A stretch of DNA of 64,000 nucleotides from Dehalococcoidia bacterium (GCA_963665745.1 OY762443.1:611616-675615), one strand, 5' to 3'. Positions 3,768-54,417 are shown, counted from the first letter of the stretch. Program-made: numbers and translations. The notes: a model not told the origin generated them from the letters alone.

Positions 3768-5090
3768 ATGACCGATGAGCTAGCCGCCCTCGGCGGCGCC
3801 CCCACCATAACGATCGACCAGGCCCACTACACCCAGTGGCCGATCTACACTGAGGAAGAGGCACAGGTCGCGGCGGACCTCATCCGCAACCACGCCCTGT
3901 CCAGCGCAATCGATGGCCCCGGCCCGATAACCGAACTGGAAAAGCTCGTTGCCGACACGTGGGGCGTCCGACACGCCATCGCCCACTCCAGCGGGACCAC
4001 TGCCCTGCGTACCGCGCTGTTCGGCGTCGGAGTCGTCCGAGGCGACGAGGTTATCACCCAGTCCGCCGTCCACCCGTTCAGCTGCCTGCCCATCATCGGC
4101 TGTGGCGCCGTGCCGGTCTTCGCCGACATCGACCCGCTCACCACGACCCTCGACCCTGCCGACGTGGAACGCAAGATAACCCCGCGCACAAAAGCCATCA
4201 TGGTCGTCCACTGGAAAGGCATTCCCGCGGACATGGACGCGCTCATGGACATCGCCTGCCGACACGGACTGAAAGTCGTCGAGGACAACGCCGTCTCCCA
4301 GAGCACGACGCATCGCGGGCGCATGTTGGGCAGCATCGGCGACGCCTCCGCCATCAGCTTCCAGGACGGCAAGCTGACCTCCGCCGGCGAGGGGGGAGTA
4401 TTCATGACCGACTCCGACGAGGTCTTCCAGCGAGCCGCTACGCTCGGCCACTACGAGCGCCTCAAGAACCTCCCCGACCCGAAGTGGCGGGCCGTCAGCG
4501 GATTCAGCTTCGGCGAGAAATACCGCATGGCGACCATCACCGCGGCAATCGGCGTCGTACAGATGAAGCACTGGCGCAAGCGTCTCGACGTCCGCCACGA
4601 CAACGCCGCCAAGCTGGGCCGCGCCATCGCCGAGATCGACGGCTTCTCCGTCCCCGAATACCCCGACTACTTCCCCTCGCCCTACCAGTCCGGGCGCATC
4701 CTCTTCCACCCCGGCAGGCTCGGCGGCATCACACGCGAGAGGCTGATCGAGGTACTCAACGCCGAAGGGGCCCGGGTCACGTCCCCTGCCCGCAAGGACT
4801 CCAGGATCCCCCACACGAACGGCCTCTGGCGAATGCTCCACAAGCACCCCGTCTTTGCGGGCAACGAGCACGGCACGGAGGACATCCTCTGGGAGGTCCT
4901 CGGCCCCAACGCCACGAAGATCGACTACAAGAACGTTGTCCTGCCCGTCACGGAAGACCCGGAAGTCCCCTACGACACGATCGAGCTGCCGAGCTTCACC
5001 CGCCCGGCCGACGACCTCATCGACCAGTACGCAAGGGCCTTCGACAAGGTAGCCACACACGCCCACAGGCTTGCGGAAGCCGGCGCATGA
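3768..5090 (+). CDS. DegT/DnrJ/EryC1/StrS-family PLP-dependent aminotransferase
   Basis: 440 aa. HSSGTTALRTAL, VVEDNAVS, and the PLP-lysine context SFQDGKLTSAGEGGVF are typical of the family. Confidence 0.85.
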   Translation: MTDELAALGGAPTITIDQAHYTQWPIYTEEEAQVAADLIRNHALSSAIDGPGPITELEKLVADTWGVRHAIAHSSGTTALRTALFGVGVVRGDEVITQSAVHPFSCLPIIGCGAVPVFADIDPLTTTLDPADVERKITPRTKAIMVVHWKGIPADMDALMDIACRHGLKVVEDNAVSQSTTHRGRMLGSIGDASAISFQDGKLTSAGEGGVFMTDSDEVFQRAATLGHYERLKNLPDPKWRAVSGFSFGEKYRMATITAAIGVVQMKHWRKRLDVRHDNAAKLGRAIAEIDGFSVPEYPDYFPSPYQSGRILFHPGRLGGITRERLIEVLNAEGARVTSPARKDSRIPHTNGLWRMLHKHPVFAGNEHGTEDILWEVLGPNATKIDYKNVVLPVTEDPEVPYDTIELPSFTRPADDLIDQYARAFDKVATHAHRLAEAGA

Positions 5091-5953
5091 TCGACTTCCA
5101 CACCCACGTCGGCAGAGACCGCTCGATCGACGTAGTCCGCCGGCACGTCGACGCGCACGGCGGGGGCATCTCGGTCCTCCTGCCTCTCGAACCGGGACCG
5201 ACCTCTGCCGCCGGGGAGAGTGACTCGATGTCCACACAGGTCGCTATAGAAGCGCACGAGTCCTGCCCGGATGAGACCATCGCCTTCTGCCACGTCGATC
5301 CCATGAGTCCCGATGGGACCAAGCGCCTCCACGCCTTGCGAGACACCGGCGTCGTCAAAGGCTTCGGCGAGCACAAGGTCCGCCTGCCCCTCGACCATCC
5401 CCGCAACATGGACATCTACCGGCTGTGCGGCGAGTTCGGCTGGCCCGTCCTCATCCACATGGACTACACCGGCACCTTTGGGACCAACTTCCCTGCTCTG
5501 GAAACCGTGGTACGCACCCTCCCCGATACCACGTTCATCGGACATGCGATGGCGTGGTGGACGAACATCACCGCAGACGCCGTCCCCGACACATCCTCGC
5601 CCGACTTCTCCGACTACCCCATGGGACCCGTCCGGCCCGTCGGCATCTCCGACCGCCTCCTGTCCGAATATCCCAACCTCTACGGCGACCTCTCCGCCCG
5701 GTCCGGCTACCTCGCTCTCCTCAGGGACGCCGACTTCACCCGTGACTTCCTCAAGCGCCACCGGACAAAACTTCTCTGGGGGACAGACTGCCCGTGCCAC
5801 GACGGGCGAGGCAGCTACCCGAACGGTACGTTCCGCGTGTGCCTCGGCGAGGTCATGCTGTCACTGCTCCGCGACTCATGCGAGTCCGAGGCGCACTTCA
5901 ACGACATCACCCACAACAACGGGGCGAGACTGCTCGGCCTCGAAAACATCTAA
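5087..5953 (+). CDS. amidohydrolase-2 (PF04909-like) metal-dependent hydrolase
   Basis: The C-terminal part of ORF 3959..5953 starting at ATG 5087 (MIDFHTHVG, an HxH metal motif), and LLWGTDCP near the C-terminus. The ATGA overlap with the upstream stop suggests translational coupling. Confidence 0.75.
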   Translation: MIDFHTHVGRDRSIDVVRRHVDAHGGGISVLLPLEPGPTSAAGESDSMSTQVAIEAHESCPDETIAFCHVDPMSPDGTKRLHALRDTGVVKGFGEHKVRLPLDHPRNMDIYRLCGEFGWPVLIHMDYTGTFGTNFPALETVVRTLPDTTFIGHAMAWWTNITADAVPDTSSPDFSDYPMGPVRPVGISDRLLSEYPNLYGDLSARSGYLALLRDADFTRDFLKRHRTKLLWGTDCPCHDGRGSYPNGTFRVCLGEVMLSLLRDSCESEAHFNDITHNNGARLLGLENI

Positions 5954-5964
5954 GGAGAACCGCA

Positions 5965-6369
5965 ATGCCACGACTCAGAATCGACAGTCCGAAAGGCGTC
6001 CACCAACCGCCCGGCAAGTACTCCCACGCCGCAAGGGCCGAAGGCCCCCTGATCGTCATCGCGGGGCAGGTCGCCCTCGACATCGACGGCGGGCTTGTCG
6101 GCGAGAACGACGTCGCCGCGCAGACTCGACAGGTATTCCGAAACATGGAAGCCGTCCTTGCGGGCTCGGGCAGCTCGTTCGCCAACGTCGTCGAGTTCAC
6201 GTATTACGTCGTTGGACGCGAGAACCTCCAGGGCTTCATGGACGCGCGGACGGCCATCTTCGATGAGGCGTACCCCAAAGGCGACTACCCGCCCGCGACG
6301 CTCCTCGTAGTTGGCGGCCTCGCGAACGAGAGCTTCCTCGTCGAAGTCTCCGCGCTCGCGACTATGTAA
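5965..6369 (+). CDS. RidA/YjgF/TdcF-family reactive-intermediate deaminase
   Basis: ORF 5794..6369 trimmed to ATG 5965, preceded by AAGGAG at 5952-5957. GKYSHA..IAGQVA..DVAAQTRQVFRNMEAVL..FTYYV..P..ATLLVVGGL is the RidA fold signature. Confidence 0.85.
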   Translation: MPRLRIDSPKGVHQPPGKYSHAARAEGPLIVIAGQVALDIDGGLVGENDVAAQTRQVFRNMEAVLAGSGSSFANVVEFTYYVVGRENLQGFMDARTAIFDEAYPKGDYPPATLLVVGGLANESFLVEVSALATM

Positions 6370-6385
6370 GCTGGAGGGTGATTCC

Positions 6386-7513
6386 ATGATCTACGACGGA
6401 CACGCTTACTGCGCTCAGGATCCCAGTCTCGGCGGCGGGTTTGAAGACCGTGCCGAGTTCGACCGCTTCCTCCAGCTGTTCATGGCGACGTCGCGCCAGC
6501 AGCCCGTCTGGCGAAAGCGAGACCGGATGCCCGGCGACGCGAGCGGACTCGTCGATCCGGCCCGGCCGTGGGACTTCGACGCGCTGAGGGAAGCTGCATT
6601 CCGCACCGCAGAGAACGGCAGGGTCGAGTGGGACGTGGACGGCGAGACATTCGTCAAACAGGCCCTCCCTCCGTGGGTCGATCACCTCACCTTCACCGTC
6701 GATAACCTCGTCGCCGAGATGGACTATGTCGGCGTGGACATGGCTCTCCTCCACCGCACGCCCTACATGAGCAAGTCCAACGAGTTCATCGCCGAGTGCG
6801 TTCGCGCGTATCCCGACCGCATCCAGGGTCTCGCCTACGTTGAGGAGTGGCTGCTGGCCTCCGACACCGACGCCTGCATCGGGAAGCTGGAACACGCCGT
6901 CAACGACCTCGGCCTGCACGGCTACCAGTTCATGCCCCACCACATGGAACTCTACGGCGTGGACCGGAAGTGGGCCGGGCCTGTCTTTACGCCGTTCTGG
7001 GATGCCCTGAGCGAACTCGGCGTGCCGGTCTTCTTCACGCTCTATGCGAACGACTACGACGAATACCTGGAGGAGCTTCGTACCCTGCGCCGCTGGATGG
7101 AGCGGTACCCCGACGTGACGGTCGTCCAGACGCATGGGTTCAACTGGCGCATGTTCGCCGACGATGAGAAGCTCGTCGTCCCCGACGAGGTCTACGATGC
7201 CGCGCCCATCGATCACCCGAACTACCACATCCAACTGCTCTTCGCCGTCTTCCTCCAGCGCCGTTGGGACTACCCCATGCCCCAAATCCTCCCGACTATG
7301 GAGAAGATGTACCGCCGCATAGGCCCGGAGAAGCTGATCTGGGGGACAGACATACCCGTCTCCCTCCTCTGGTGGACGTATCGCCAGAACCTCGACTTTC
7401 TGCGCAGCTACTGCGACTTCATCCCGCAGTCGGACATGGACATGATCCTTGGTGGGAATATGGCGCGGATCATGGGGGTAACGGAAGTGTTACCATGGCG
7501 ACAGGAGACATAA
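6386..7513 (+). CDS. amidohydrolase-2-like TIM-barrel hydrolase
   Basis: ORF 6311..7513 trimmed to ATG 6386, after GGAGGG. The C-terminal LIWGTDIP..ILGGNMARIMG resembles PF04909 members. The N-terminal metal motif is atypical (DGHAY). Confidence 0.55.
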   Translation: MIYDGHAYCAQDPSLGGGFEDRAEFDRFLQLFMATSRQQPVWRKRDRMPGDASGLVDPARPWDFDALREAAFRTAENGRVEWDVDGETFVKQALPPWVDHLTFTVDNLVAEMDYVGVDMALLHRTPYMSKSNEFIAECVRAYPDRIQGLAYVEEWLLASDTDACIGKLEHAVNDLGLHGYQFMPHHMELYGVDRKWAGPVFTPFWDALSELGVPVFFTLYANDYDEYLEELRTLRRWMERYPDVTVVQTHGFNWRMFADDEKLVVPDEVYDAAPIDHPNYHIQLLFAVFLQRRWDYPMPQILPTMEKMYRRIGPEKLIWGTDIPVSLLWWTYRQNLDFLRSYCDFIPQSDMDMILGGNMARIMGVTEVLPWRQET

Positions 7514-7515
7514 AC

Positions 7516-7833
7516 ATGGCGCTCACCCGTGACTTCAAGGAGACCGTTCAGGCCCGCGCCCAGCGCGACGCAGCGTTTCGAGAAGAACTGCTGAAGGAAG
7601 GCGTCGAATGCCTGCTTGCCGGAGATGTTGATGCGGGCAAGATCGTACTGCGTGACTACATAAACGCCACCATCGGTTTCGAGGAGCTTGGCTCCCTCAC
7701 GAACAAGCCGCCCAAGAGTCTGATGCGCATGTTCGGGCCGTCGGGCAACCCCCACGCCCGCAACCTTTTCGAGGTTATCAGCCGCATTCAGCAGCACGAA
7801 GGCATCCAACTCGAAGTTAAAGCCGTTCGATAA
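7516..7833 (+). CDS. antitoxin-type HTH DNA-binding protein (addiction-module antidote-like), with no cognate toxin adjacent
   Basis: MALTRDFKETVQARAQRDAAFREELL..LRDYINATIGFEELGSLTNKPPKSLMRMFGPSGNPHARNLFEVISRI. The GNP-x-x-x-x-L-x-x-V tail is typical of HigA/antidote-like proteins. An alternative start is ATG 7495. Confidence 0.6.
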   Translation: MALTRDFKETVQARAQRDAAFREELLKEGVECLLAGDVDAGKIVLRDYINATIGFEELGSLTNKPPKSLMRMFGPSGNPHARNLFEVISRIQQHEGIQLEVKAVR

Positions 7834-7928: not shown

Positions 7929-8084
7929 TTATTCGTCATAGGCTCGACAAACGCCATCGGCGTCGATTCTGCATATGTATCGATGGTCGAAATAATTGAA
8001 CAGGAAAAGGTTTATAGCCAGCAGAATAAGAAACACGACAAGAGAGATTATCCTGATTCTACGCTTTGAATCGCCCTGACTCAT
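7929..8084 (-). CDS. 51-aa single-pass membrane peptide, ATGA-coupled to the upstream MTase-HNH gene
   Basis: MSQGDSKRRIRIISLVVFLILLAINLFLFNYFDHRYICRIDADGVCRAYDE. Its ATG (8084-8082) overlaps the MTase-HNH TGA (8083-8081). The stretch is AT-rich. No homology was recognised. Confidence 0.4.
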   Translation of the reverse strand: MSQGDSKRRIRIISLVVFLILLAINLFLFNYFDHRYICRIDADGVCRAYDE

Positions 8085-9517
8085 TCCTTCAACTGCGCTA
8101 GCAGATACTCCTGCGGCCTGTCGCCCTTGATGCGGTTGCAGTGCGAGCAGAGGAGTTGGAGATTGTCCATGTGATCGGTGCCGCCGCGTGAGCGCGGGAT
8201 TATGTGGTCGACCTCCATGATGCGGTAGGGGAACTCGGTCTTGCAACCGTTGCAGCGGCCTTCCTGCTCACCGAAGAGGACGTGCTTGTTCTTGCGGTAG
8301 TGGATCGGCGCGTCGATGTCCGTGCGTTGCGGAATGTCGGTGCGGGCGGTGACGAGCCGGTCGTGGAAGAGGTCGCCCATGAAGTCGCGGAGGCGCAGGT
8401 TCACCAACTCGACGGCCTTCGGGGACAGGTCGATGCCGACCCACTGGCGGCCCAGCTTTTCGGCGGCTACGCAGGCGGTGGCGCACCCGGCGAAGGGGTC
8501 GAGCACCATGTCTCCGGGGTTGCTGGACGCTGCAATGATGCGTTCGAGCAGGGCAAGTGGCTTTTGCGTCGGGTAGCCTATGTGCTCCTTTGACCGATTA
8601 TTGACGTTTTGAACGTCGCCGATGAAGTCGGAGGCGGCTTCACCTTTGGAAGCTGCAAGATACCGCTTCAGGCGTGGGTATCCTGATTCTGTCCAGTCGA
8701 TCAACCCGGCATTTGAAAGGGCGTCCAAACGCGCGTGAACGCTCGTCATTGAGGTGTATCCCGGAATCAGGTTATCCTCAATCCACTGGGCATAGTTGCC
8801 GGTCTTGGGAACACTCCAACATCGCCCGCTTTGGCCAGGATCGTATCCCTGCCATGGCTGACCGGACTCTCCACTCGACAATCCCGGCCCGGTCAGGTTA
8901 TCCACCCTGTAGCGTCCCTTTTCGTCCGTATACCGGTAGTCCCGAGCTAGATAGGTCTCTCCAAGTGGCAGGTATTGCGTGTGCCATGTGGCTCCATCGA
9001 AGGCGTAGAACAGCAAACGGTCTGATACCCTCGCGAACCGCTTGGCGTCGCTGTGTGAGCTAGTCCTCTTCCAATTGATCTCATTACGGAAATTCTGCCC
9101 GCTGAACACAGCGTCCATCAGCACCTTCAGGTACGCTCCTGCGGTATCGTCGCAGTGCAGGTAGATACTTCCCGTGTCCTTCAAGACGCGGCGCATTTCC
9201 AGCAACCGGACGGCCATCATGCAGAGGTAGGACTGCATCCCCTTACCGTGCGTCATACCTGCGGTCTCGATGGTGCGGTAGATGGCGGGATGCTCGTCGG
9301 CTATGAGGCCCATCCAGGCCACGTCGAGGTCGCTGAGCGTCCACGTGTCCTTGAACGCCGCGCCCGCCGCCCTGCTGCCCACAGGGGCCTCGTAGTTCTT
9401 GTTGGAGTTGAAGGGCGGGTCGAGGTAGATGAGGTCCACCGAGTCGGAGTTGAGGCCCCGGAGGATGTGGAGGTTGTCGCCCGTCCATATCGTCTTGTCC
9501 ACGAAGTTCGCTGGCAT
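8081..9517 (-). CDS. beta-class N6A/N4C DNA methyltransferase fused to a C-terminal HNH endonuclease (copy 1)
   Basis: ORF 8081..11218 trimmed to ATG 9517 (MPANFVDKTIW). Motif IV is DPPF near the N-terminus, and the AdoMet motif I VLDPFAGCATACVAAEKLGRQWVGIDL lies late, which is the beta permutation. The C-terminal HNH-Zn motif reads CNGC..VDHIIPRSRGGTDHMDNLQLLCSHCNRIKG. Everything upstream of 9517 in the track ORF is antisense to the IS110 gene. Confidence 0.85.
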   Translation of the reverse strand: MPANFVDKTIWTGDNLHILRGLNSDSVDLIYLDPPFNSNKNYEAPVGSRAAGAAFKDTWTLSDLDVAWMGLIADEHPAIYRTIETAGMTHGKGMQSYLCMMAVRLLEMRRVLKDTGSIYLHCDDTAGAYLKVLMDAVFSGQNFRNEINWKRTSSHSDAKRFARVSDRLLFYAFDGATWHTQYLPLGETYLARDYRYTDEKGRYRVDNLTGPGLSSGESGQPWQGYDPGQSGRCWSVPKTGNYAQWIEDNLIPGYTSMTSVHARLDALSNAGLIDWTESGYPRLKRYLAASKGEAASDFIGDVQNVNNRSKEHIGYPTQKPLALLERIIAASSNPGDMVLDPFAGCATACVAAEKLGRQWVGIDLSPKAVELVNLRLRDFMGDLFHDRLVTARTDIPQRTDIDAPIHYRKNKHVLFGEQEGRCNGCKTEFPYRIMEVDHIIPRSRGGTDHMDNLQLLCSHCNRIKGDRPQEYLLAQLKE

Positions 9518-9552: not shown

Positions 9553-11117
9553 GGATGTGAGGTTCACTGCCGAGGGCGCGGATGGCGCAGAGTGGGAGTG
9601 GATGCAAGGATTTTAGATTCCTCACTTCGCTACGCTGCGTTCGGAATATCTCATGAGGGTTGCCACCCTCACCACCTGGAATGAAAATGGGTATGCCCCG
9701 CTTGGTGACGAGTTCGGTTGTCAATGGTGCCGCGAGCCCGGTTCGGAATATGACACTGGCGACCTGAAGGCACCACCTATTGTCGCCCCAGACGGCTGGG
9801 AGCACGTGTAGCAATGTCAGTTTTGGAGAGGTTGCCCGCCAATCGGGAGTCTTGTTGGAGGGTTGAGCATGGAAGTTGTACACGAGCGGAGTTGTGGATT
9901 GGACGTCCATAAGCGGACTGTCGTGGCGTGTGTCATCACGCCGGAGGGTAAACGGACTCGCAGATTCAAGACGATGACCAAGGACGTGTTGAGCCTGGCG
10001 GATTGGCTGGGTGAGGTAGGTGTGACCCACGTGGCGATGGAGAGCACGGGGGTATACTGGCAGCCTTTGTACAATCTGCTGGAGGACGATTTCGAGGTGT
10101 GGGTGGTGAACGCTGCCCATATCAAGACGGTCCCTGGTCGCAAGACGGACATGAAGGACGCCGAGTGGATAGCCGACCTTCTGCGGCACGGACTGTTGCG
10201 ACCGAGCTTTGTCCCTGACCGTCCTCAGCGGGAGTTGCGAGAGTTGACTCGCCATCGCCGACAGTTGATTAGGCAGCGTGCGCAGGTGGTCAACCGCATT
10301 CAGAAGGTGTTGGAAGGGGGCAACATCAAGTTGAGTTCTGTGGCAACTGATGTCGTGGGTGCTTCGGGACGCGCAATGTTGAGGGCTATGATCGCTGGGG
10401 AAGACGATCCCGAGACGCTGGCGTCCATGGCCAGGGGGCGACTTCGTGACAAGCGCTTGCTGTTGGTCGATGCACTGGAAGGGTCGATGGGTTCCCACCA
10501 GCGGATGATGTTGGACAGCTATCTGCGACATCTCGACTTTTTGGAGCGTGAGATCGAGCGGATGAGTGAGGAGGTGGAGGATCGGACGCGCCCTTTTGAG
10601 GAGGTGATCGAGAGGATCGACGAGATTCCAGGAATGGGACGTCGAGGTGCCGAGCAAGTGGTGGCGGAGATCGGTACGGACATGAATCGGTTCCCTACGT
10701 CGCAGCACTTGGCATCGTGGGCGGGGATGTGTCCCGGCAATAACGAGAGCGCGGGCAAACGGATCGGCGGTCGCACCAGGCGCGCCAATCCGTGGCTGAA
10801 GTCGACGCTGGTGGAGGCAGCTTGGGCCTCTGTGAAGACTCGCGACACGTACCTGTCGGCCCAATACCGCCGCATAGCGGCTCGCAGGGGCAAAAAGCGG
10901 GCGATCATCGCCGTGGCTCACTCGATCCTGGTCATCATCTACCATATGCTCAGAGACGGCACTCGACACAGGGACCTTGGTGGGCAATACTTCGAAGAGC
11001 GCAACCACCAGGCAATAGTGCGCTATACCGTCCGACGGCTCAATCGGCTGGGATACGACGTGACTCTCGCAGCTGCCTGACAGGTCTATTTTCGTAGCAA
11101 TGACAGTAGTGGGGCTG
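9553..11117 (+). mobile_element. IS110-family insertion sequence (maximal bounds; exact termini unresolved)
   Basis: Contains the IS110 transposase CDS. It occupies the divergent intergenic region between the MTase-HNH and DUF1800 genes and is bounded by candidate native promoters at 9524-9552 and 11118-11147. No terminal inverted repeats were seen, as expected for IS110. Confidence 0.7.
9869..11080 (+). CDS. IS110-family DEDD transposase/recombinase
   Basis: MEVVHERSCGLDVHKRTVVACV..VAMESTGVYWQPLYNLL..VVNAAHIK..KTDMKDAEWIA is the DEDD N-domain. IPGMGRRGAEQVVAEIG..F....HLASWAGMCPGNNESAGKR is the Transposase_20 domain. ATG 9869 follows GGAGGG. Confidence 0.95.
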   Translation: MEVVHERSCGLDVHKRTVVACVITPEGKRTRRFKTMTKDVLSLADWLGEVGVTHVAMESTGVYWQPLYNLLEDDFEVWVVNAAHIKTVPGRKTDMKDAEWIADLLRHGLLRPSFVPDRPQRELRELTRHRRQLIRQRAQVVNRIQKVLEGGNIKLSSVATDVVGASGRAMLRAMIAGEDDPETLASMARGRLRDKRLLLVDALEGSMGSHQRMMLDSYLRHLDFLEREIERMSEEVEDRTRPFEEVIERIDEIPGMGRRGAEQVVAEIGTDMNRFPTSQHLASWAGMCPGNNESAGKRIGGRTRRANPWLKSTLVEAAWASVKTRDTYLSAQYRRIAARRGKKRAIIAVAHSILVIIYHMLRDGTRHRDLGGQYFEERNHQAIVRYTVRRLNRLGYDVTLAAA

Positions 11118-14749: not shown

Positions 14750-14766
14750 GAGACTTTTAGCTAACC

Positions 14767-14803
14767 CCCTCTCCCTTGAGGGAGAGGGCTGGGGTGAGGG
14801 TGA
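14767..14803. repeat. REP family 1 hairpin (CCCTCTCCC-TTGA-GGGAGAGGG) with a CTGGGGTGAGGGTGA tail
   Basis: A 9-bp stem at 14767-14775 and 14780-14788. The same unit occurs at 48656, 49315 and 54175. Confidence 0.8.
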
Positions 14804-14807
14804 AAGA

Positions 14808-32204: not shown

Positions 32205-34331
32205 TCAGAGACCTTCCTCGCCCTCAGGACGCCGGGGCGCGGTGGGGTCACCCGTCGCGCTTGTGCCGAAGTGATCAGGTTTCCAGTACCAGACACGTCC
32301 TTGATCGGCCCCTGCGACTAGCTCGAATTTGCCGTCGCCGTCCCAGTCGACGGGCGCAGGATGGACGCCATGCCGCCAGAACTCCAGCGGATTGCCGTCC
32401 TCGTCCCACAGCACAACTTCGGGCCTCCGGAAGACGGGGTCTTGGTTGGAGCCGACGTTCTTGGCGAAGAGGACGTAGCTGCCGCGATACGGGCTGTGGT
32501 GCTGAGGGCCGACGCCCAGCAGAAGGTCGAGCACGCCATCGCCGTCCCAGTCGACGACGTTGATCTTCGTGCGGCCGCGACCGTCGCCTCCTCCCTCGGT
32601 GTAGACGCCGTGGGTCTTGATCGTCTCACCGTCCTCGTAGCGCAGCTTCTCTCCGGGGCGCAAGAGGGACGGTTCGTCAGAGCCGACCCTGCGGAAGAGG
32701 GCGAGATCGAGGTCTTTGTCCTGGATGACGATGTCGGGCAGTCCGCTGCCGGAGAAGTCGCCGACGCCCGCCTGCTGCCTCCATGGGCCGCGAAGGGGTT
32801 GCCCGTCGGTGACGTACAAGCGCTGCGGAGGGCCCAGTTCCGGCTCGGATTTGGTACCCCAGTTCGGGTACCAGTCGTAGAGGCCGATCATGTCGCTGAC
32901 GAGGAGGTCAAGGAGGCCGTTGCCGTTCCAGTCCACGAGGACGGGGTTGCTGTACCCGCCCGTGTCGCCGTCGTACGGACCCTGGGAGCCGCCCCAGTGG
33001 TGTCCTCCGGCCGGGTTGGGAGCGGCGAGTCGGCGGATCTCGGTGGTGCCGTACCTCACGCGCTCGGGGAGGGCGAATCGGAGCGGGTCGGTCGAGAGGG
33101 TCTTGTACCAGAGGACGTACCCCTCCACCCCGCCGACCACGAGGTCGGGCGTACCCGTGCCCCTCCAGTCGCCGACGGTTGGGACGCTGAAGAAGCTGTT
33201 GCCGACATGCGGATTGTTCTGCTTGATCCTCTTCGGCGTGTCGTAGATGGGACGACCATCCGCGTCACGGCCCCGGAAGCGGGACCACGACGGTGACTGC
33301 GACCGGTCGCCCGCGAAGATGTCGAACCGGCCGGGTTCCAGCACGTCGGACACGCCGACGTTGATGTCGAAGTTGGTTGAGCGGTTGAACGGCTCGTTGT
33401 GCAACGTGAACAGTTCGACGATTGTGCCCCACTGCGGGGATGGCCCAGTGGCGATTAAGGGAAGGTGGTAGACCCTGCCATAGTAGGTACAGAGAAGGAG
33501 TCCCGCTCCGGCATTCGTCGGATCGACCGGTGATGCCCACATGGTGTGGCGAGGCAGATCAATGGACGCCATGCCCCTGTGGGTGAACTCGATACCCCCG
33601 CCAGTGCCGGGGGTGGATTCCCGCGTTCGCGGGAATGACGGAGGGAGAGAGGTGGTGTTCTCGAAGAGGTGAAGGGTCGGCGTGGGGATCTCGCCGATCC
33701 AGCGGCCGTCTCGATGGTAGCGGTCGGCCTGGTCTTCAGGGGAAATGCCGGTCGTTGGGTCGATGTGGTACTTGTCGCGTTCGCCCTGGCTGACAACGAC
33801 GAGGTCGGGACGCCCGTCGCCGTTCCAGTCGATGGCGGCGGTGGAACCCTTCGCCCACGAACTTGCGTCGAGGTCCGTCCCGTGTACGTGAACGGGCTGT
33901 CCGGCCTCCCGGTCGGTCGCTGCGCCATCGGCAAGCGAGAGGGCGACGACGGGCTTGTGGGAGTAGTACCGTAACCCAATAATCACTTCACCGACTCCGT
34001 CGCCGTTGAAGTCTGCGGCGGTGAGCAAGAACCCGGTGAGGCCCTCATCGTTCTCGTCGCGCTGGGCCGACCGCGATATGGTGCCCCATCGCCGTCCACG
34101 ATCGACGATCGGCGTTCCATCGGCGAGGGTGTCCACGAACTTGTGCGCAAAGATGTCGTTGCCGGAGGTTACGAGCTCCGGTTCGCCGTCGCCGTCCCAG
34201 TCGAGGACGTGGACCGTCGACGTGGGGTCGCAGGGGGCGTGGAGATCGCCTATCACGCCTTCGTCGCCGAGTACCAAGGGGGAGCCGTCTCCGGTGTTTC
34301 CGCCCTCGATGGGGCGTGGGTATGTACGCAT
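32205..34331 (-). CDS. FG-GAP/VCBS-repeat beta-propeller protein, no signal peptide seen
   Basis: Repeated DWDGDG.PELV, DFNGDGVGEVI, DWNGDGRPDLVV, DWNGNGLLDLLV and DWDGDGVLDLLL motifs. Start chosen at ATG 34331, 5 nt after GAGGAGAA, rather than the track start at 34358. Confidence 0.8.
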   Translation of the reverse strand: MRTYPRPIEGGNTGDGSPLVLGDEGVIGDLHAPCDPTSTVHVLDWDGDGEPELVTSGNDIFAHKFVDTLADGTPIVDRGRRWGTISRSAQRDENDEGLTGFLLTAADFNGDGVGEVIIGLRYYSHKPVVALSLADGAATDREAGQPVHVHGTDLDASSWAKGSTAAIDWNGDGRPDLVVVSQGERDKYHIDPTTGISPEDQADRYHRDGRWIGEIPTPTLHLFENTTSLPPSFPRTRESTPGTGGGIEFTHRGMASIDLPRHTMWASPVDPTNAGAGLLLCTYYGRVYHLPLIATGPSPQWGTIVELFTLHNEPFNRSTNFDINVGVSDVLEPGRFDIFAGDRSQSPSWSRFRGRDADGRPIYDTPKRIKQNNPHVGNSFFSVPTVGDWRGTGTPDLVVGGVEGYVLWYKTLSTDPLRFALPERVRYGTTEIRRLAAPNPAGGHHWGGSQGPYDGDTGGYSNPVLVDWNGNGLLDLLVSDMIGLYDWYPNWGTKSEPELGPPQRLYVTDGQPLRGPWRQQAGVGDFSGSGLPDIVIQDKDLDLALFRRVGSDEPSLLRPGEKLRYEDGETIKTHGVYTEGGGDGRGRTKINVVDWDGDGVLDLLLGVGPQHHSPYRGSYVLFAKNVGSNQDPVFRRPEVVLWDEDGNPLEFWRHGVHPAPVDWDGDGKFELVAGADQGRVWYWKPDHFGTSATGDPTAPRRPEGEEGL
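33615..33639. repeat. REP family 2 hairpin lying in frame inside the FG-GAP CDS
   Basis: GGATTCCCGC-GTTC-GCGGGAATGAC, with the stem at 33617-33624 and 33629-33636. It is translated on the minus strand as PSFPRTRES. Confidence 0.8.
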
Positions 34332-48617: not shown

Positions 48618-48655
48618 CGGCGGTTCCACATGATATTGGGAGCTTAGTCGAAGCG

Positions 48656-48691
48656 CCCTCACCCCAACCCTCTCCCGCGAACGGGAGAGGG
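48656..48691. repeat. REP family 1 (CCCTCACCCCAA + CCCTCTCCC-GCGAAC-GGGAGAGGG)
   Basis: Stem at 48668-48676 and 48683-48691. It lies 39 nt after the acpP stop and may act as a terminator. Confidence 0.8.
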
Positions 48692-48743
48692 GGTATGTTG
48701 ACTACACGGCAGTTATTGATACCCGGCACGGCTCCGCGCGGCC

Positions 48744-48844
48744 TTCGACAGGCTCAGGCCGAACGGGGCGTAAGGTTGCTCAGGCCGAACGGGGCGTAAG
48801 GTTGCTCAGGGCGCATGGGGCGTAAGGCTGCTCGGGGCGAACGG
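48744..48844. repeat. REP family 3 core followed by a 26-bp tandem array (about 3.5 copies)
   Basis: TTCGACAGG, then CTCAGGCCGAACGGGGCGTAAGGTTG twice (48753-48778 and 48779-48804), a variant CTCAGGGCGCATGGGGCGTAAGGCTG (48805-48830), and a partial CTCGGGGCGAACGG (48831-48844). The copies are contiguous with no spacers. Confidence 0.9.
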
Positions 48845-49221: not shown

Positions 49222-49314
49222 ACCGGAGTGCGACGGAGTAACTGTTCAGTCTTCGTGAGGTGAATCGCGAAGATCCCCTCTCTGTATCTCTCCCCCGGCG
49301 GGGGCTGACAGGGG

Positions 49315-49349
49315 CCCTCACCCCAGCCCTCTCCCACGACGGGAGAGGG
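49315..49349. repeat. REP family 1 (CCCTCACCCCAG + CCCTCTCCC-ACGAC-GGGAGAGGG)
   Basis: Stem at 49327-49335 and 49341-49349. A degenerate relative lies at about 49286-49310. Confidence 0.8.
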
Positions 49350-49388
49350 GGGAGGAGAATTCCTGTATATCTCATCGACTCTGAACAG

Positions 49389-49865
49389 TTAGGCGGTCGA
49401 GTCTTGGATGCTGGGTTCCGCCTTGTTCCTTCGACGCAGGACGATGTAGGTGACGACCGTCGAGGTTATCAGGCTGAGGAGGCCGCCGATGAGGATGTCG
49501 ATGGGCACGAGGACGCCGGGCCAGGTCTTGAACATCAGGAAGATCGGCACGATGTAGGTGGCGTAGGCGGCGCAGCCGAGGACGAAGCTGTTCTTGACCG
49601 CCTTGATGAGGCTGTTCTCCTTCAGGGCAGGCTCGATGGCGAGGTAGCTGTTGCCGAGCGCGATGAGCCCGAGGAACGCGAGCAGGGCGAGGAGCTGCTC
49701 GACTCCCCACATGTCCATCTTCCTGCCGAACTCTTCGCGGAGCACGTCGTTGCCGCTGGCCTCGTAGAGGCTCTCATACATCCCCACCGCGATGGGCGAG
49801 AGGTTCCACCCCACGTCGATGACCGTGTATACAACGAATGCCGCTAGGAATCTGAGGAAGTGCAT
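49389..49865 (-). CDS. integral membrane protein (DUF2177-like)
   Basis: 158 aa with 4 hydrophobic segments. The family assignment is from memory of the N-terminal F..F..Y..ID..W pattern. Confidence 0.55.
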   Translation of the reverse strand: MHFLRFLAAFVVYTVIDVGWNLSPIAVGMYESLYEASGNDVLREEFGRKMDMWGVEQLLALLAFLGLIALGNSYLAIEPALKENSLIKAVKNSFVLGCAAYATYIVPIFLMFKTWPGVLVPIDILIGGLLSLITSTVVTYIVLRRRNKAEPSIQDSTA

Positions 49866-49919
49866 GTTGACCTCGTGGTGTGGGGTTTGGGCTATGGGGG
49901 AATTTGTATCATAGCACGT

Positions 49920-51293
49920 CTACCAAGCCAAGTCCCCTGGCGTCACATTCATCATCCTTCCGGCCTTTTGCACTTCCATCCGGCGGCGTCCCAGCTTCAG
50001 CAACTCTTCTCCTCCAGAACCCCTTAGTGCATCTCCAGGTATGCCCAAAGCCTGCAAGATTGCCACAGCGATTTGCAATGGTCCGGGAGTCACGTAGGGA
50101 TTTAGTGTGCCGGGTGGTTCTTTGGTCTCCGGCGCTATCACAAACGTATCAAGCGAAGTTCCGTCGGGAGTGATGATCTCGTCATCCTGAACTATTGGAA
50201 GCCCAAAAGCCGAGATGTGAGAAAGATAGTTTGGTAAATCAAGGAACGGAATCGTGCGCCAGACGTTTTCAATGTAAGCCTTTATATAGAACGGACCTCT
50301 CACATTTGCATGATCGACCACCATACGGTGACGCTTAATGATCCCTTCACAGGCGTCTAGCATCATATTAAGGTCTAGAATCTTGACCGATTCAAGACCT
50401 CCATTATTGAACATGGAAATGAACTCCTGGCCCGTAGAATAAATATTCCACACCTCATCGTATTCATTTGTCGACAATACTGGTATGGGAAGGGTTACAA
50501 ACGAATGACATTGACGAGAGAATTCCCATGTAAGTACACGATTATAAGGATTATTACCTGCCGTCTGTCTCGCTACGTAACCATCATGCTTGGAGAAAAT
50601 GTTGTCGAAAGGGACTGAGTTTTCTTTCATGACTTCACTGAAGTCAGTCAATTTCCCATCGTACCAATGGCCCATAACTTCATAGGGATCCGATATTATG
50701 CTGAAATGAATAAAAGGCTGATCTTCCTCGCCTTTTGAGACCGTTGGACTCTTCAGTATGCGATCCTCTAATCGCCGACGGGCCTGCTCGCCGCGCCTAG
50801 ACAAAATGTCAAAGGTAACTCGATCTGTTATTGGCCTAGGATCAGAGGAGTCTCCAATACGCACGTATATGCGGCCATCGTTATGAACATAGGGAGTATC
50901 AGGACCTTGAGGTATTTCGGCTGCGACAATTGAGCGCCCTTGCTGTAGGCCTATCGATTCAATTGGCCCTTCGAATACTCGGGTGATGTAGAACACGTGG
51001 GGATGTAGAAGGTCTTTCGCTGCGTTTCTCAAGGCTTCAAGAACTGAGGGCACATCAGAATTTGCAATGCCTGGAAAGCACTCTGCAACATTCTGTTTGG
51101 AACCACTCTTGATTCCAAGGAAATACAATCCGCCGTATTGATTAGCAAAGGAAGATAAGCTTTTTGCCAGAGCACGTGGCTTGATGATTTCGGACTTATA
51201 TTCAACGTACCAGCCTTCATAAACGTCTCTAAGTTCCGTCAAATCAGTTGGAGAAAGATCTACAAGGTTCTCGTCGAAAGGTGTATGTCTCAT
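49920..51293 (-). CDS. AlbA_2 / Schlafen-like (divergent AAA) DNA-binding domain protein with an unassigned ~300-aa C-terminal region
   Basis: N-terminus: EGWYVEYKSEI..ALAKSLSSFANQYGGLYFLGIKSG....IVAAEIPQGPDTPYVHNDGRIYVRIGDSS. The gene is clearly AT-richer than its neighbours by eye. Confidence 0.7.
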   Translation of the reverse strand: MRHTPFDENLVDLSPTDLTELRDVYEGWYVEYKSEIIKPRALAKSLSSFANQYGGLYFLGIKSGSKQNVAECFPGIANSDVPSVLEALRNAAKDLLHPHVFYITRVFEGPIESIGLQQGRSIVAAEIPQGPDTPYVHNDGRIYVRIGDSSDPRPITDRVTFDILSRRGEQARRRLEDRILKSPTVSKGEEDQPFIHFSIISDPYEVMGHWYDGKLTDFSEVMKENSVPFDNIFSKHDGYVARQTAGNNPYNRVLTWEFSRQCHSFVTLPIPVLSTNEYDEVWNIYSTGQEFISMFNNGGLESVKILDLNMMLDACEGIIKRHRMVVDHANVRGPFYIKAYIENVWRTIPFLDLPNYLSHISAFGLPIVQDDEIITPDGTSLDTFVIAPETKEPPGTLNPYVTPGPLQIAVAILQALGIPGDALRGSGGEELLKLGRRRMEVQKAGRMMNVTPGDLAW

Positions 51294-51576
51294 CCTTTTC
51301 CTCGTAAGATTGATTCGTTAGGATAGTGATCTATCTATACTGTACAGTTAGCATTATCACCTTCGGAATAGAAAAAAGAAGCTCCAGGCATTGGAAGCAC
51401 AGTACACATAGGTTCGGCTACAGGGATACTTCCCGGTCACTAGGGTTCTGAAGAACATTGCAGTTGTAATTCCGCGAAGTTTCCACGTTCTATGACCATA
51501 ATGCTATAGATACTCCACTCTAATTGCAAATAGACAGAAATTCCCCCTCACCCCACCACCCACACGCTCCCAGCAC

Positions 51577-51680
51577 CGGCTTGGTGACGATCACGTTGTT
51601 GCCACCTGCGAGTTATCGAGGTGTCCTTCGGTCCCCACTACCAAAGCGAGCATGTCGGCGTCGTCCAGCGGTCGTCCGAG
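51577..51680 (-). pseudogene. decayed, internally deleted remnant of a homoserine kinase (thrB) gene
   Basis: The reverse translation LGRPLDDADMLALVVGTEGHLDNSQVATT* aligns with ThrB LGKPLDNARMLALAARIEGHPDNSAAALYGG. One frame over, NVIVTKP matches the ThrB C-terminus DVIVTKP. About 150 codons between the two blocks are missing. Confidence 0.65.
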
Positions 51681-51792
51681 TTGACATGAGAGACTGGGAG
51701 GTTGTACTGTTCGGGACGCGAACAAATATCCTATTCACAGCAGCACGTTGTTGTTGTACAACACTCACCACACCGAGCAACGGGTGATTGAC

Positions 51793-53157
51793 ATGGTGGC
51801 ACCGAACTTTGTCGATAAGACGATATGGACGGGGGATAACCTCGATATTCTCCGGGGGATGAACTCCGAGACGGTAGACCTCATCTACTTGGACCCGCCG
51901 TTCAATTCGAACCGCGACTACGCGGCTCCGGTCGGAAGCAAGGCGGCGGGCGCGGCCTTCAAAGACACGTGGACGCTCAGCGACCTCGACGTGGCGTGGA
52001 TGGGCCTCATCGCCGATGAGCATCCGGCGATCTATCGCACCATTGAGGCCGCCGGCCTCACGCACGGCAGGGGGATGCAGTCCTATCTCTGCATGATGGC
52101 CGTCCGGTTGCTGGAAATGCGCCGCGTCTTGAAGGACACCGGAAGCATCTACCTTCACTGTGATCCGACGGCTTCTCATTATCTTAAATTACTCATGGAT
52201 GCGGTGTTTGGAGCAACGCAATTCCAAAACGAAATCACTTGGCAACGGACAACGGCGCATAACGATTCGGTTCGTTACGGTAGGAACTCCGACACGATAC
52301 TGTTTTACTCGAATCGCGATCGTTGGACGTGGAATATTCAGTACCAGCCCCACGACGATTCTTATAAGGCCAGATTTCGGCATCGTGATCCCGACGGTAG
52401 AGCGTGGGCCGATGACAACCTCACCGCCAAAGGGCTATCGGGCGGAGGTTACGAATATGAATATAAGGGTGTGACGTCACTGTGGCGTGTGCCATTGAAG
52501 AGAATGCGAGAATTGGATGACGAGGGGAGGCTTCATTTCACAAGTCGAGGCGGCATTAGGGTGAAGAGATACCTCGACGAGGTTAAGGGCAGGCCACTAC
52601 AAGCAGTTTGGGCTGACATCTACGCTATCAACTCCCAAGCGAAGGAACGGATAGGCTACCCCACGCAAAAGCCCCTCGCCCTCCTTGAACGCATCATCGC
52701 CGCGTCCAGCAACCCCGGCGACACGGTGCTCGACCCGTTCTGTGGATGTGCTACGGCGTGCATAGCGGCTGACAAATTGGGCAGGCAATGGGTAGGAATC
52801 GACCTATCTTCGAAGGCCGTGGAACTGGTCAATATGCGCCTTCGGGAGTATATGGGAGACCTATTCCACGATCGGCTTGTTACGGCTCGGACGGATATTC
52901 CCAAGCGGACGGATATTGACGCTCCAATTCACTACCGGAAGAACAAGCACGTCTTGTTCGGGCAGCAGGAAGGCCGTTGCGCGGGCTGTCGCATGGACTT
53001 CCCGTTCAAGGCGTTCGAGGTAGACCACGTGATACCGCGCTCCAAAGGCGGGACGGATCACATCGACAATCTCCAGTTGCTCTGCTCGCACTGCAATCGC
53101 ATCAAGGGGAACCGCGACCAGGCCTATCTCATGGCGCAGTTGTCGGATATGTCGTAG
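51793..53157 (+). CDS. beta-class N6A/N4C DNA methyltransferase fused to a C-terminal HNH endonuclease (copy 2)
   Basis: ORF 51748..53157 trimmed to ATG 51793 (MVAPNFVDKTIW). DPPF, VLDPFCGCATACIAADKLGRQWVGIDL, and the HNH motif CAGC..VDHVIPRSKGGTDHIDNLQLLCSHCNRIKG are present. It is a paralogue of 8081-9517. Confidence 0.9.
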   Translation: MVAPNFVDKTIWTGDNLDILRGMNSETVDLIYLDPPFNSNRDYAAPVGSKAAGAAFKDTWTLSDLDVAWMGLIADEHPAIYRTIEAAGLTHGRGMQSYLCMMAVRLLEMRRVLKDTGSIYLHCDPTASHYLKLLMDAVFGATQFQNEITWQRTTAHNDSVRYGRNSDTILFYSNRDRWTWNIQYQPHDDSYKARFRHRDPDGRAWADDNLTAKGLSGGGYEYEYKGVTSLWRVPLKRMRELDDEGRLHFTSRGGIRVKRYLDEVKGRPLQAVWADIYAINSQAKERIGYPTQKPLALLERIIAASSNPGDTVLDPFCGCATACIAADKLGRQWVGIDLSSKAVELVNMRLREYMGDLFHDRLVTARTDIPKRTDIDAPIHYRKNKHVLFGQQEGRCAGCRMDFPFKAFEVDHVIPRSKGGTDHIDNLQLLCSHCNRIKGNRDQAYLMAQLSDMS

Positions 53158-53248: not shown

Positions 53249-54148
53249 TCACCCAACGACCCGCACGCCGGTGGGTGACGGCTTGGTGACGATGACGTCG
53301 CCGTCGACGCCGGCTTTGGAGGCGGCTTCGGCCATTTCGTAGCCGATGGTCATTTCGCGGGCGGATGAGAGGGCTAGGATGGTGGAGCCGGCGCCTGAGA
53401 GGAACGCGCCGTGTGCGCCGGCGTCGAGGGCGGCGCGCATGATGACTTTCATGGGGTGAAAGATCGACTGGCGGGGCGGCTGGTGGAGGCGGTCCTGCGT
53501 GGCGACGGCGAGGCGGTCGAGGTCGCCGGTGGCGAGGGCGTTGACTAGGAGGCCGACGCGGCCCATGTTGAAGACGGCGTCGTGCACGGATATGTCCGCC
53601 GGGAGGACGGAGCGGGCCTCGGCGGTGGGCATGGGCACGTCGGGCACGAAGAGGACGGCGCTGAGGCGCTCCGGTATGGAGACGGTCGAGGTGATGAGGC
53701 GGTCTCCGTCGTGGACGACGACCTGGCATCCTCCGTAGAGCGCGGCGGCGGAGTTGTCGGGGTGTCCCTCGATGCGCGCGGCTAGAGCCAGCATTCGGGC
53801 GTTGTCTAGCGGCTTTCCGAGCAGCTCGTTGGCGGCGACGATGCCGGCGACGGCGGCGGCTGAGCTGCTTCCGAGTCCGCGACCGAGGGGTATCTCGTTG
53901 GTGCAGGTGAAGCGGACGGCCGGCGCGGGCTGGCCCGCCTCCTCGTAGGCGAGCCGGAAGGAGCGGGCAATGAGGTTGTCCGGGCCGGTGGGGAGCTCGT
54001 CGCGTCCGAGTCCGCGTATCTCGAAGCCCGTCGCCCCGGTGTCGACGCGAACGGTGTTCCAGATGTCGAGGGCGATGCCGAGGCAGTCGAAGCCCGGCCC
54101 CATGTTGGCGCTCGTCGCGGGGGCCTGGACGGTTACGCTGTGGGGCAT
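53249..54148 (-). CDS. thrB: homoserine kinase
   Basis: ORF 53249..54418 trimmed to ATG 54148 (MPHSVTVQAPATSANMGPGFDCLG). The GHMP motif PLGRGLGSSSAAAVAG is present. The track ORF's N-terminal extension is translated REP sequence. Confidence 0.92.
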   Translation of the reverse strand: MPHSVTVQAPATSANMGPGFDCLGIALDIWNTVRVDTGATGFEIRGLGRDELPTGPDNLIARSFRLAYEEAGQPAPAVRFTCTNEIPLGRGLGSSSAAAVAGIVAANELLGKPLDNARMLALAARIEGHPDNSAAALYGGCQVVVHDGDRLITSTVSIPERLSAVLFVPDVPMPTAEARSVLPADISVHDAVFNMGRVGLLVNALATGDLDRLAVATQDRLHQPPRQSIFHPMKVIMRAALDAGAHGAFLSGAGSTILALSSAREMTIGYEMAEAASKAGVDGDVIVTKPSPTGVRVVG

Positions 54149-54174: not shown

Positions 54175-54243
54175 TCACCCTCACCCTAGCCCTCTCCCAC
54201 GACGGGAGAGGGGATTGGATTCCCGCTTTCGCGGGAATGACGG
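54175..54243. repeat. composite REP: family 1 hairpin fused to family 2 hairpin
   Basis: TCACCCTCACCCTAG + CCCTCTCCC-ACGAC-GGGAGAGGG (54190-54212), then GGATTCCCGC-TTTC-GCGGGAATGACGG (54217-54243). It lies in the divergent thrB/mutS2 intergenic region. Confidence 0.85.
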
Positions 54244-54417
54244 TGTGGGGGTGCGACGGCTTATTTTCAGAGTATGGTGGATTGGGGGCTGGATGCCGAA
54301 GGCCATTATACACGCCGTTGAAGGTTGAATCGGATATAATGGAATACCCGAATACTTGAAACAGACTTGCGATCCGAGCTTCTGTCGCATCGCAGCGTCG
54401 CCCGCGCAGCACACTCA

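Follow-up and report, generated by a model that had tools for sequence, protein, structure and literature searches.

A prokaryotic Schlafen nuclease gene and a methyltransferase-HNH fusion as probable independent cassettes at a defence hotspot of a Dehalococcoidia bacterium

Between the genes for a DUF2177 membrane protein and homoserine kinase (thrB), a Dehalococcoidia bacterium carries two divergent genes, one for a 457-amino-acid (aa) protein with an N-terminal Schlafen nuclease domain (Schlafen-X), the other for a fusion of a DNA methyltransferase (MTase) with an HNH nuclease domain (MTase-HNH). We analysed both, at positions 49920-53157 of a 64,000-nt stretch of this Chloroflexota-like genome (GCA_963665745.1 OY762443.1:611616-675615; hereafter, the window). 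Collectively, the results make it probable that the DUF2177-thrB interval is a small defence hotspot with two independent, separately acquired single-gene cassettes: an effector of the prokaryotic Schlafen (pSlfn) type and a mobile MTase-HNH fusion. A first-pass annotation of this DNA had taken the genes for a laterally acquired pair. Each gene does appear to be laterally acquired and of defence type, but they were not acquired together, since three sister loci (L060, L150, and L152; L-numbers denote the homologous loci compared with the window, itself WIN) carry one without the other. The features of the interval are the following, from left to right:

49389-49865, minus strand: gene for the DUF2177 membrane protein (Pfam PF09945), the left border of the hotspot.
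49913-51545: AT-rich Schlafen cassette, comprising the gene and 252 bp of upstream DNA of its own, in which GAGGA forms the ribosome-binding site.
49920-51293, minus strand: the Schlafen-X (pSlfn-X) gene, 457 aa, ATG start, PF04326.
51546-51671, minus strand: thrB' relic, the 3' end of thrB plus an internal fragment, with about 450 bp lost internally.
51672-51751: junction DNA, 80 bp between the thrB' relic and the gene X relic, with no match in L060 or L150.
51752-51792, plus strand: 3' coding relic of a gene termed X, which holds the palindrome GTTGTACAAC and today serves as the MTase-HNH leader.
51793-53157, plus strand: MTase-HNH copy 2, 454 aa, with a beta-class N6A/N4C MTase, a target recognition domain (TRD), and a C-terminal zinc-finger HNH domain.
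53249-54148, minus strand: thrB, the functional homoserine kinase gene and right border of the hotspot (GHMP_kinases Pfam domain in syntenic loci).

The separate origin of the two genes emerges from four sister haplotypes of the interval (L060, L150, L152, and L153). In L060, whose housekeeping proteins are 90-96% identical to those of the window (ThrB, 92% at the aa level), thrB is followed by 230 bp of AT-rich DNA and then by a Schlafen allele (75% identical; GC content at third codon positions, GC3, 0.47), with no MTase-HNH. L150 encodes an MTase-HNH protein 100% identical to copy 2, between flanks that both show 95% nucleotide identity to the window, and has no Schlafen gene. Upstream of its MTase-HNH gene lies X (845-2231), a frameshifted member of a family of approximately 445 aa, which stops 5 bp before the MTase start; in L152 and L153, X is intact (462 aa) and overlaps MTase-HNH by 38 nt. 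Hence, the native operon partner of MTase-HNH at this site is X, not Schlafen.

The sole difference between the window and L150 is the segment 49913-51751. Its left breakpoint, 49912/49913, is common to the comparisons with L060 and L150, and the left edge of the cassette abuts conserved host DNA upstream of DUF2177. The region upstream of the Schlafen gene aligns with that of the L060 Schlafen gene, and blastn matches two further pieces of L060 to the thrB' relic (thrB 7721-7772 to window 51596-51546, and 7207-7268 to window 51671-51610). This relic is closer to the 3' end of the L060 thrB than the functional thrB of the window is. Homology to L150 resumes at L150 position 2198, corresponding to window 51752, within the last codons of X. 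The simplest history is that the window is a chimera, in which an L060-type Schlafen cassette together with a thrB fragment would have replaced X in a haplotype of the L150/L152 type. Taken together, the haplotypes and the relics of thrB and X imply that Schlafen and MTase-HNH were not co-acquired; comparative genomics thus shows both the separability of the genes and the cassette swap. L060 has a truncated DUF2177 gene (9712-9881), in contrast to the intact gene of the window, L150, and L152, a difference which indicates that the hotspot also erodes its own flanks.

Two other accounts of how the interval arose were rejected. Our first reading, that MTase-HNH had inserted into a Schlafen locus, fails because L150 and L152 show a pre-existing X plus MTase-HNH arrangement and because the thrB fragment travelled with Schlafen. 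A 33-nt imperfect inverted repeat (49878-49910/51533-51565) brackets the AT-rich islet in the manner of transposon ends; however, one arm is the stop region of thrB', the other is conserved DNA upstream of DUF2177, the repeat is absent in L060, no target-site duplications (TSDs) accompany it, and its match quality is, by a rough estimate, about that expected by chance for a region of this size.

Base composition is in line with distinct sources. The Schlafen gene has a GC content of 0.467 and a GC3 of 0.456, against a GC3 of 0.82-0.91 in the flanking housekeeping genes, and the stretch upstream of it (51294-51530) is still poorer in GC (0.414), so that the AT-richness first noted by eye for the gene and the approximately 240 bp to its right is borne out by computation. 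The cassette as a whole (49913-51545; GC 0.459 vs 0.627 +/- 0.024 in equal-sized segments elsewhere, z -7.1) has the lowest GC content anywhere in the 64 kb. The adjoining thrB' relic has a GC content of 0.635. GC3 is 0.46 for Schlafen vs 0.70 for MTase-HNH copy 2, in which the hypervariable TRD (52164-52641; GC 0.51 vs 0.58-0.61 for the ends of the gene) is indeed the AT-rich central part that the first-pass annotation described.

The start of copy 2 is most likely ATG 51793 rather than TTG 51748: the coding sequences of copy 1 and of all homologues start at the corresponding position, and a public gene call matches it exactly. With this start, the divergent spacer between the Schlafen and MTase-HNH starts measures 499 bp, in agreement with the earlier figure of about 500 bp. 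A perfect 10-bp palindrome in the MTase leader had been proposed as an operator. It exists, at 51753-51762 rather than one base to the left at 51752-51761, but its proposed role does not hold up: perfect 10-bp palindromes number 50 in the window, or 0.78 per kb, and the 499-bp spacer holds two of these, so that its occurrence matches chance frequency, and neither copy 1 nor a 90%-identical MTase-HNH gene (L058) has GTTGTACAAC conserved in its upstream DNA. L150 reads GATGTACAAC at the same site, which is not palindromic. By its alignment, the palindrome is a coding relic of the X 3' end at the recombination breakpoint. A sigma-70 scan, which is uninformative for this phylum, found no promoter.

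X itself belongs to a family of 215 homologues with no match in Pfam or PADLOC (L150 845-2231, L152 5001-6389, and L154/L155 5001-6341 among its members). Elsewhere, X resides within an integrative element with serine recombinases and a PIN gene, and its N-terminal part displays, by eye only, an R-x4-H (HEPN-like) motif.

The identity of the 457-aa protein rests on several lines of evidence. Pfam SLFN_AlbA_2 (PF04326) matches residues 27-152 with 51.5 bits (gathering cut-off, 25.3; E 1.8e-13), which upholds the earlier assignment of an AlbA_2 domain to the N-terminus of the open reading frame (ORF) on the minus strand at 49920-51293; beyond this domain, the protein has no match in Pfam, NCBIfam, or PADLOC, and PADLOC assigns it to no system. 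The Slfn/AlbA_2 domain spans approximately residues 1-180 and is followed by an alpha/beta C-terminal domain (181-457) with no family assignment. The catalytic motif, E26-GWYV-E31-Y-K33, is an exact Ex4ExK; an alignment of 84 homologues shows no variation at E26 or K33, and at least 90% of them keep E31. A profile search of the PDB aligns the motif with E206/E211/K213 of SLFN14, E211 being the residue changed in the deposited E211A structures. With the AF2 model of the protein (pLDDT 91.1, pTM 0.85), Foldseek retrieves SLFN11/13/14/5/12 and the SAMD9 tRNase (probability 0.99-1.0, E 9e-5 to 1e-3), through the N-terminal domain only. Compared with the L060 allele, the gene is under purifying selection (ratio of nonsynonymous to synonymous substitution rates, dN/dS, 0.13), with the nuclease domain at 84% and the C-terminal domain at 67% aa identity. 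The domain identities, the intact catalytic motifs, and selection on Schlafen are thus shown. In the comparison with L060, dS reaches 1.33 for Schlafen; of the six flanking genes, DUF192 has a dS of 0.80 and the other five fall in the range 0.25-0.65.

Prokaryotic proteins with an AlbA_2 domain have been described as Schlafen nucleases with an Ex4(E/D)xK motif, which cleave tRNA anticodon arms when triggered by phage and carry diverse fused sensor domains (55 architectures plus 558 unannotated clusters), with 69.6% of their genes having defence neighbours (Perez Taboada et al., Nat Microbiol 2026, PMC13056530). The view in the first-pass annotation that AlbA_2 recurs in defence contexts is therefore sound, the domain being the nuclease domain of that study. 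Judged by sequence and modelled fold, the 457-aa protein is a pSlfn, of the class of antiphage tRNases described in 2025-26, with predicted RNase activity. The earlier proposal that it is the sensor or effector of a pair with MTase-HNH is not supported, as the genes are separable.

Like characterised pSlfns (e.g., RorSlfn5 and EcoSlfn7; PMC13056530), the protein combines an N-terminal PF04326 domain and an exact Ex4ExK motif with a presumed sensor domain in a single polypeptide, occurs in defence-island neighbourhoods, and has an accessory domain that evolves faster than the nuclease domain (67% vs 84% between sister alleles). Unlike in those systems, the C-terminal domain is of none of the Ig-like, DUF262, HisKinase, or HTH types and has no Pfam or significant fold match, and the host is Chloroflexota-like rather than of the Enterobacterales. 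With human SLFN11/13/14 and the SAMD9 tRNase, it shares the nuclease-lobe fold and the alignment of catalytic residues with E206/E211/K213 of SLFN14; it differs in being single-lobed, with no two-lobed N-domain, in having no helicase or linker domain, and in its low sequence identity (11-21%).

The 277-aa C-terminal domain, modelled alone, folds with high confidence (pLDDT 92.5) and is probably the sensor. Its weak matches in the PDB are to AdoMetDC (E 0.02) and to TBPs (E 0.1-1, TM 0.2-0.3), and viral models yield weak TBP matches only, none of them significant. The order of DSSP elements fits a double beta-alpha-beta4-alpha arrangement, but hhalign found no internal repeat (probability 0.6%). 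The domain may belong to the 'TBP-like' class (1.5%) or to the 'unannotated' class of PMC13056530. A search of 1.84e9 representative proteins returned 389 clusters, in which the full-size hits (approximately 440-515 aa) start the C-terminal domain at about residue 181 and the shorter matches resemble fragments; no alternative N-terminal partner for the domain was evident in this search.

The second cassette gene, MTase-HNH copy 2, has the two domains first attributed to it (N6_N4_Mtase, E 7.7e-44, and HNH, E 2e-15, in Pfam; MTase_II, E 2.9e-63, in PADLOC). In a six-sequence alignment, DPPF (motif IV), DPFCGCATA, and FxGxG (motif I) are intact and invariant, as are the zinc site and catalytic residues of the HNH domain (CxxC...DH...N...CxxC). 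The window holds another copy of the gene:

8084-9508, minus strand: MTase-HNH copy 1, 66% aa identity to copy 2 by tblastn.

The two copies share the same ends but have unalignable central TRDs, a TRD swap; the TRDs of copy 1 (8591-9149) and copy 2 are unrelated, and the copies presumably differ in specificity. Copy 1 is flanked by an ORF for a HigA-like antidote (7264-7833) and an IS110-like transposase gene (9863-11080), with no Schlafen gene nearby.

MTase-HNH is an abundant, mobile gene, with at least 8000 homologues, the top 120 of which are 67-90% identical. The 90%-identical gene (L058) is solitary at an unrelated locus, with homology limited to the coding sequence, and other close relatives are solitary or lie beside a DUF4145/PD-T7-4-like gene. 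In L144 and L145 (both 3938-6403), a 2,466-bp transposon of the IS1595 family, bounded by perfect 24-bp terminal inverted repeats (TIRs; GGGAATTACCAAGAAAGGTTGACA) and 8-bp TSDs (TTATGTTT and TAAAGAAT), has as its passenger an MTase-HNH gene 76% identical to copy 2. These two copies of the element, 100% identical, belong to a single genome, and one has inserted within a Type I restriction-modification (R-M) operon. MTase-HNH thus resembles the passengers of IS1595 elements, the L144/L145 homologue lying inside an element with an IS1595-type DDE transposase; unlike in those elements, no IS1595 transposase or TIR was found near the copies of the window, where copy 1 adjoins an IS110-like transposase gene. 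A phage or plasmid origin of the locus was rejected: what sequenced phages contain is the MTase part alone, not fused to HNH and at no more than 48% identity, and the sole Schlafen match in a plasmid collection covers 32% of the protein at 27% identity.

As an intact MTase joined with a variable TRD and a nuclease in one polypeptide, MTase-HNH is akin to single-chain R-M enzymes (Type IIC/IIG, e.g., MmeI), and its CxxC...CxxC zinc site is akin to that of zinc-ribbon HNH nicking endonucleases (PMC3592412). However, Type IIG enzymes combine PD-(D/E)xK with a gamma-class MTase, whereas here a beta-class N6_N4 MTase is followed by a C-terminal HNH domain, and MTase-HNH, unlike them, is often solitary or transposon-borne. 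The MTase motifs, TRD, and HNH residues that are present fit a single-chain, Type IIC-like R-M enzyme, for which sequence-specific, methylation-sensitive cutting of foreign DNA would be expected. A literature search found no paper describing the fusion; with or without protein X, it may represent an undescribed, transposon-dispersed R-M-like class.

In the scenario we favour, the Schlafen protein would stay inactive until an infection cue, probably a protein or nucleic acid from a phage, is sensed by its C-terminal domain. By analogy with known pSlfns, the N-terminal Ex4ExK nuclease would then cut tRNAs, so that translation stops and phage yield is limited. In MTase-HNH, the swappable TRD would set the methylation motif, and the HNH domain would nick or cut DNA, whether within a single-chain R-M-like enzyme or as an aid to the spread of the gene itself. 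The Schlafen cassette, with its donor thrB fragment, displaced X, the upstream operon partner of MTase-HNH in sister genomes.

Beyond the window, Schlafen-X has 340 full-length homologues (445-470 aa, conserved over the entire length) scattered among Chloroflexota, Latescibacterota, Alphaproteobacteria, Nitrospirota, Verrucomicrobiota, and a few archaea. The gene is below the host GC content in 43 of 45 genomes (loci L001-L057, from many phyla), by 2-23 points and with a mean difference of -8.8, which could reflect continual transfer or selection for AT in a potentially toxic RNase gene. When the ORFs near 140 family loci were clustered in an unbiased, all-against-all manner, N6_N4 MTases emerged as the sole recurrent neighbour family (12 of 140 loci, 10 of them unique), above any other pair; homologues of the two genes do, therefore, co-localise, although their company varies. 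MTase-HNH neighbours are confined to the window, L002 (=L061), and L026, in tandem in the latter two, and L001 has two MTases on the opposite strand. At L048 and L067, the MTase is paired with a HindIII-type endonuclease, and four related loci have a complete Type III R-M system with the MTase as its Mod subunit, next to genes for a PIN toxin, a GajB-like helicase, and Azaca.

The loci without an N6_N4 MTase often adjoin MmeI-like Type IIG, Eco57I-like MTase, XamI, SIR2/PDC-S65, NB-ARC, or DarT-Macro genes, and other homologues neighbour AHJR-like restriction endonucleases or transposases. The closest Schlafen relatives mostly have no MTase; in L141, the gene adjoins NUDIX and has no MTase partner. 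In L010 and L029, gamma-class MTases lie downstream. Neighbour matches to 'mad2' (MADS), considered as a hidden partner, are really gamma-class or Type IIG methyltransferases. Such mixed R-M and defence neighbours denote defence-island behaviour, in agreement with the 69.6% reported for pSlfns (PMC13056530), and the R-M adjacency of the family is island clustering.

Two of these neighbourhoods deserve separate description. In L003 (3435-20682; likewise L004, L006, and L016), from Dehalococcoidia metagenome-assembled genomes, a dense defence island is laid out in the order Type III Res, PIN, Type III Mod, Schlafen-X, GajB-like UvrD helicase, and Azaca ZacA/B/C. In L140 (216-1850), the N6_N4 MTase has, instead of HNH, a C-terminal D...QVK segment that is PD-(D/E)xK-like by eye, and, judged on this segment, it would be a second kind of MTase-nuclease fusion beside Schlafen-X.

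Several observations weigh against the scenario of an autonomous Schlafen effector next to an unrelated mobile gene. The case for RNase activity, tRNA targeting, a trigger, and protection is an analogy drawn from family membership, and 30% of pSlfn genes are without defence neighbours, while five of seven pSlfn systems tested in E. coli were unprotective (PMC13056530), so that membership is no guarantee of a defence phenotype. The sensor role of the C-terminal domain is an assumption: Foldseek against the PDB gave no significant fold match (AdoMetDC, at E 0.02, was the best), and the internal duplication that would back a TBP-like fold was rejected by hhalign (probability 0.6%). The higher dS of Schlafen may stem partly from weaker codon constraint rather than from allele replacement. 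Finally, each of the 10 unique N6_N4 MTase neighbours is on the 5' side of the Schlafen gene: in five cases the MTase shares its strand and lies 56-159 bp upstream, and in L140 it is directly upstream (28 bp by ORF call), a placement that could reflect facultative functional coupling.

The last point is also the sole positive hint, with six of the 10 MTases directly upstream on the same strand, at a facultative guard, in which the Schlafen tRNase, as a backup to restriction, physically monitors a neighbouring R-M enzyme and fires when a phage anti-restriction factor disables it. The PrrC anticodon nuclease, which consists of an ABC-ATPase-like domain and an anticodon nuclease domain, sits in the EcoprrI Type Ic R-M locus and is activated when phage anti-restriction disables EcoprrI. 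Here, too, a predicted tRNA-cleaving effector is encoded beside R-M genes, but Schlafen-X has no homology with PrrC, the linkage is not conserved at the window locus, and there is no sign of physical masking. PrrC is cited as a paradigm in the discussion of PMC13056530. At least five R-M types adjoin the family (MTase-HNH, MTase-PD-(D/E)xK-like, Type III, Type II HindIII/XamI, and Type IIG MmeI/Eco57I-like), and the slot beside MTase-HNH at the hotspot is always filled, by X or by Schlafen. Nevertheless, Schlafen is solitary by thrB in L060 and by NUDIX in L141, one conserved C-terminal domain is unlikely to recognise R-M proteins so unrelated, R-M genes are the commonest defence genes and hence expected neighbours in any defence island, and the upstream bias weakens once the gamma-class MTases downstream in L010 and L029 are counted. 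We therefore consider such a guard unlikely.

A dedicated, co-acquired two-gene system, as first proposed, in which MTase-HNH marks self and cuts foreign DNA and the AlbA_2 protein is its sensor or effector, is less likely still. It could draw on the MTases as the sole recurrent neighbours of the family, on L002 and L026, where MTase-HNH lies 89-159 bp upstream in tandem amid unrelated housekeeping genes, and on L140, where an MTase with a PD-(D/E)xK-like segment is directly upstream. At the window locus, however, either gene occurs alone in sister haplotypes, the window is demonstrably a chimera, the genes differ in composition (GC3 0.46 vs 0.70), and the palindrome is unconserved. In the family at large, about 90% of the loci with enough flank have no N6_N4 MTase, and members of the MTase family outnumber those of Schlafen-X more than 20-fold. 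The adjacent MTases are of unrelated types: those compared (WIN, L002, L026, and L140) are 29-41% identical to one another, the Schlafens beside MTases form no clade, with Schlafen and MTase identity matrices that are not congruent, and several of the MTases have a restriction endonuclease of their own (Type III Mod with Res; HindIII-type R-M). The closest MTase-HNH relatives are solitary or transposon-borne and the closest Schlafens are mostly without an MTase. Co-acquisition is, in consequence, largely refuted.

That the AlbA_2 protein is a nucleic-acid-binding regulator or a housekeeping RNA-processing factor, AT-rich by chance and not an immune effector, is similarly improbable: such proteins have long been annotated as DNA-binding or RecG-like regulators (PDB 2kyy and 3lmm descriptions), 30% of pSlfn genes are without defence neighbours (PMC13056530), many family loci have housekeeping neighbours only, and PADLOC returns no match, yet the catalytic triad is conserved throughout the family, which is patchily distributed across phyla and steadily more AT-rich than its hosts, and the gene evolves two to three times faster than its flanks, comes and goes at a variable hotspot, and has transposases and defence genes as neighbours.

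Outside the hotspot, the window contains GC-rich REP-like hairpin repeats (CCCTCACCCCAACCCTCTCCC...GGGAGAGGG) in intergenic regions, and a 26-nt unit occurs three times in tandem on the downstream side of acpP (48752-48844). The hairpins are at:

14765-14804: REP-like hairpin.
33614-33641: REP-like hairpin.
48655-48693: REP-like hairpin.
49314-49352: REP-like hairpin.
54175-54250: REP-like hairpin.

Whereas the pSlfn class itself is already known, a pSlfn with an uncharacterised sensor-type domain is new. Through the reading of the interval as two independent cassettes, the four haplotypes between DUF2177 and thrB become a clean natural case of defence-cassette replacement in uncultured bacteria, with breakpoints at three junctions resolved to a few bases, the exception being the 80-bp segment 51672-51751. 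They also sound a caution that two adjacent defence-type genes, even when sharing a GC anomaly, need not be one system. An abundant MTase-HNH fusion, at times a passenger of IS1595, is brought to notice. There is a slim chance that Schlafen-X is an R-M-linked backup effector, whose C-terminal domain senses the R-M state or a phage anti-restriction factor and unleashes tRNA cleavage; if so, it would be a Schlafen-based analogue of PrrC/EcoprrI or PARIS, and the 5' methylases would denote functional coupling, not island clustering. For the Schlafen field, the family adds a confidently folded sensor-type domain with no assignable fold, and for approximately 390 clusters of unnamed proteins from Chloroflexota, Latescibacterota, Alphaproteobacteria, and archaea, we propose a concrete function, that of a phage-triggered tRNase of the Schlafen class.

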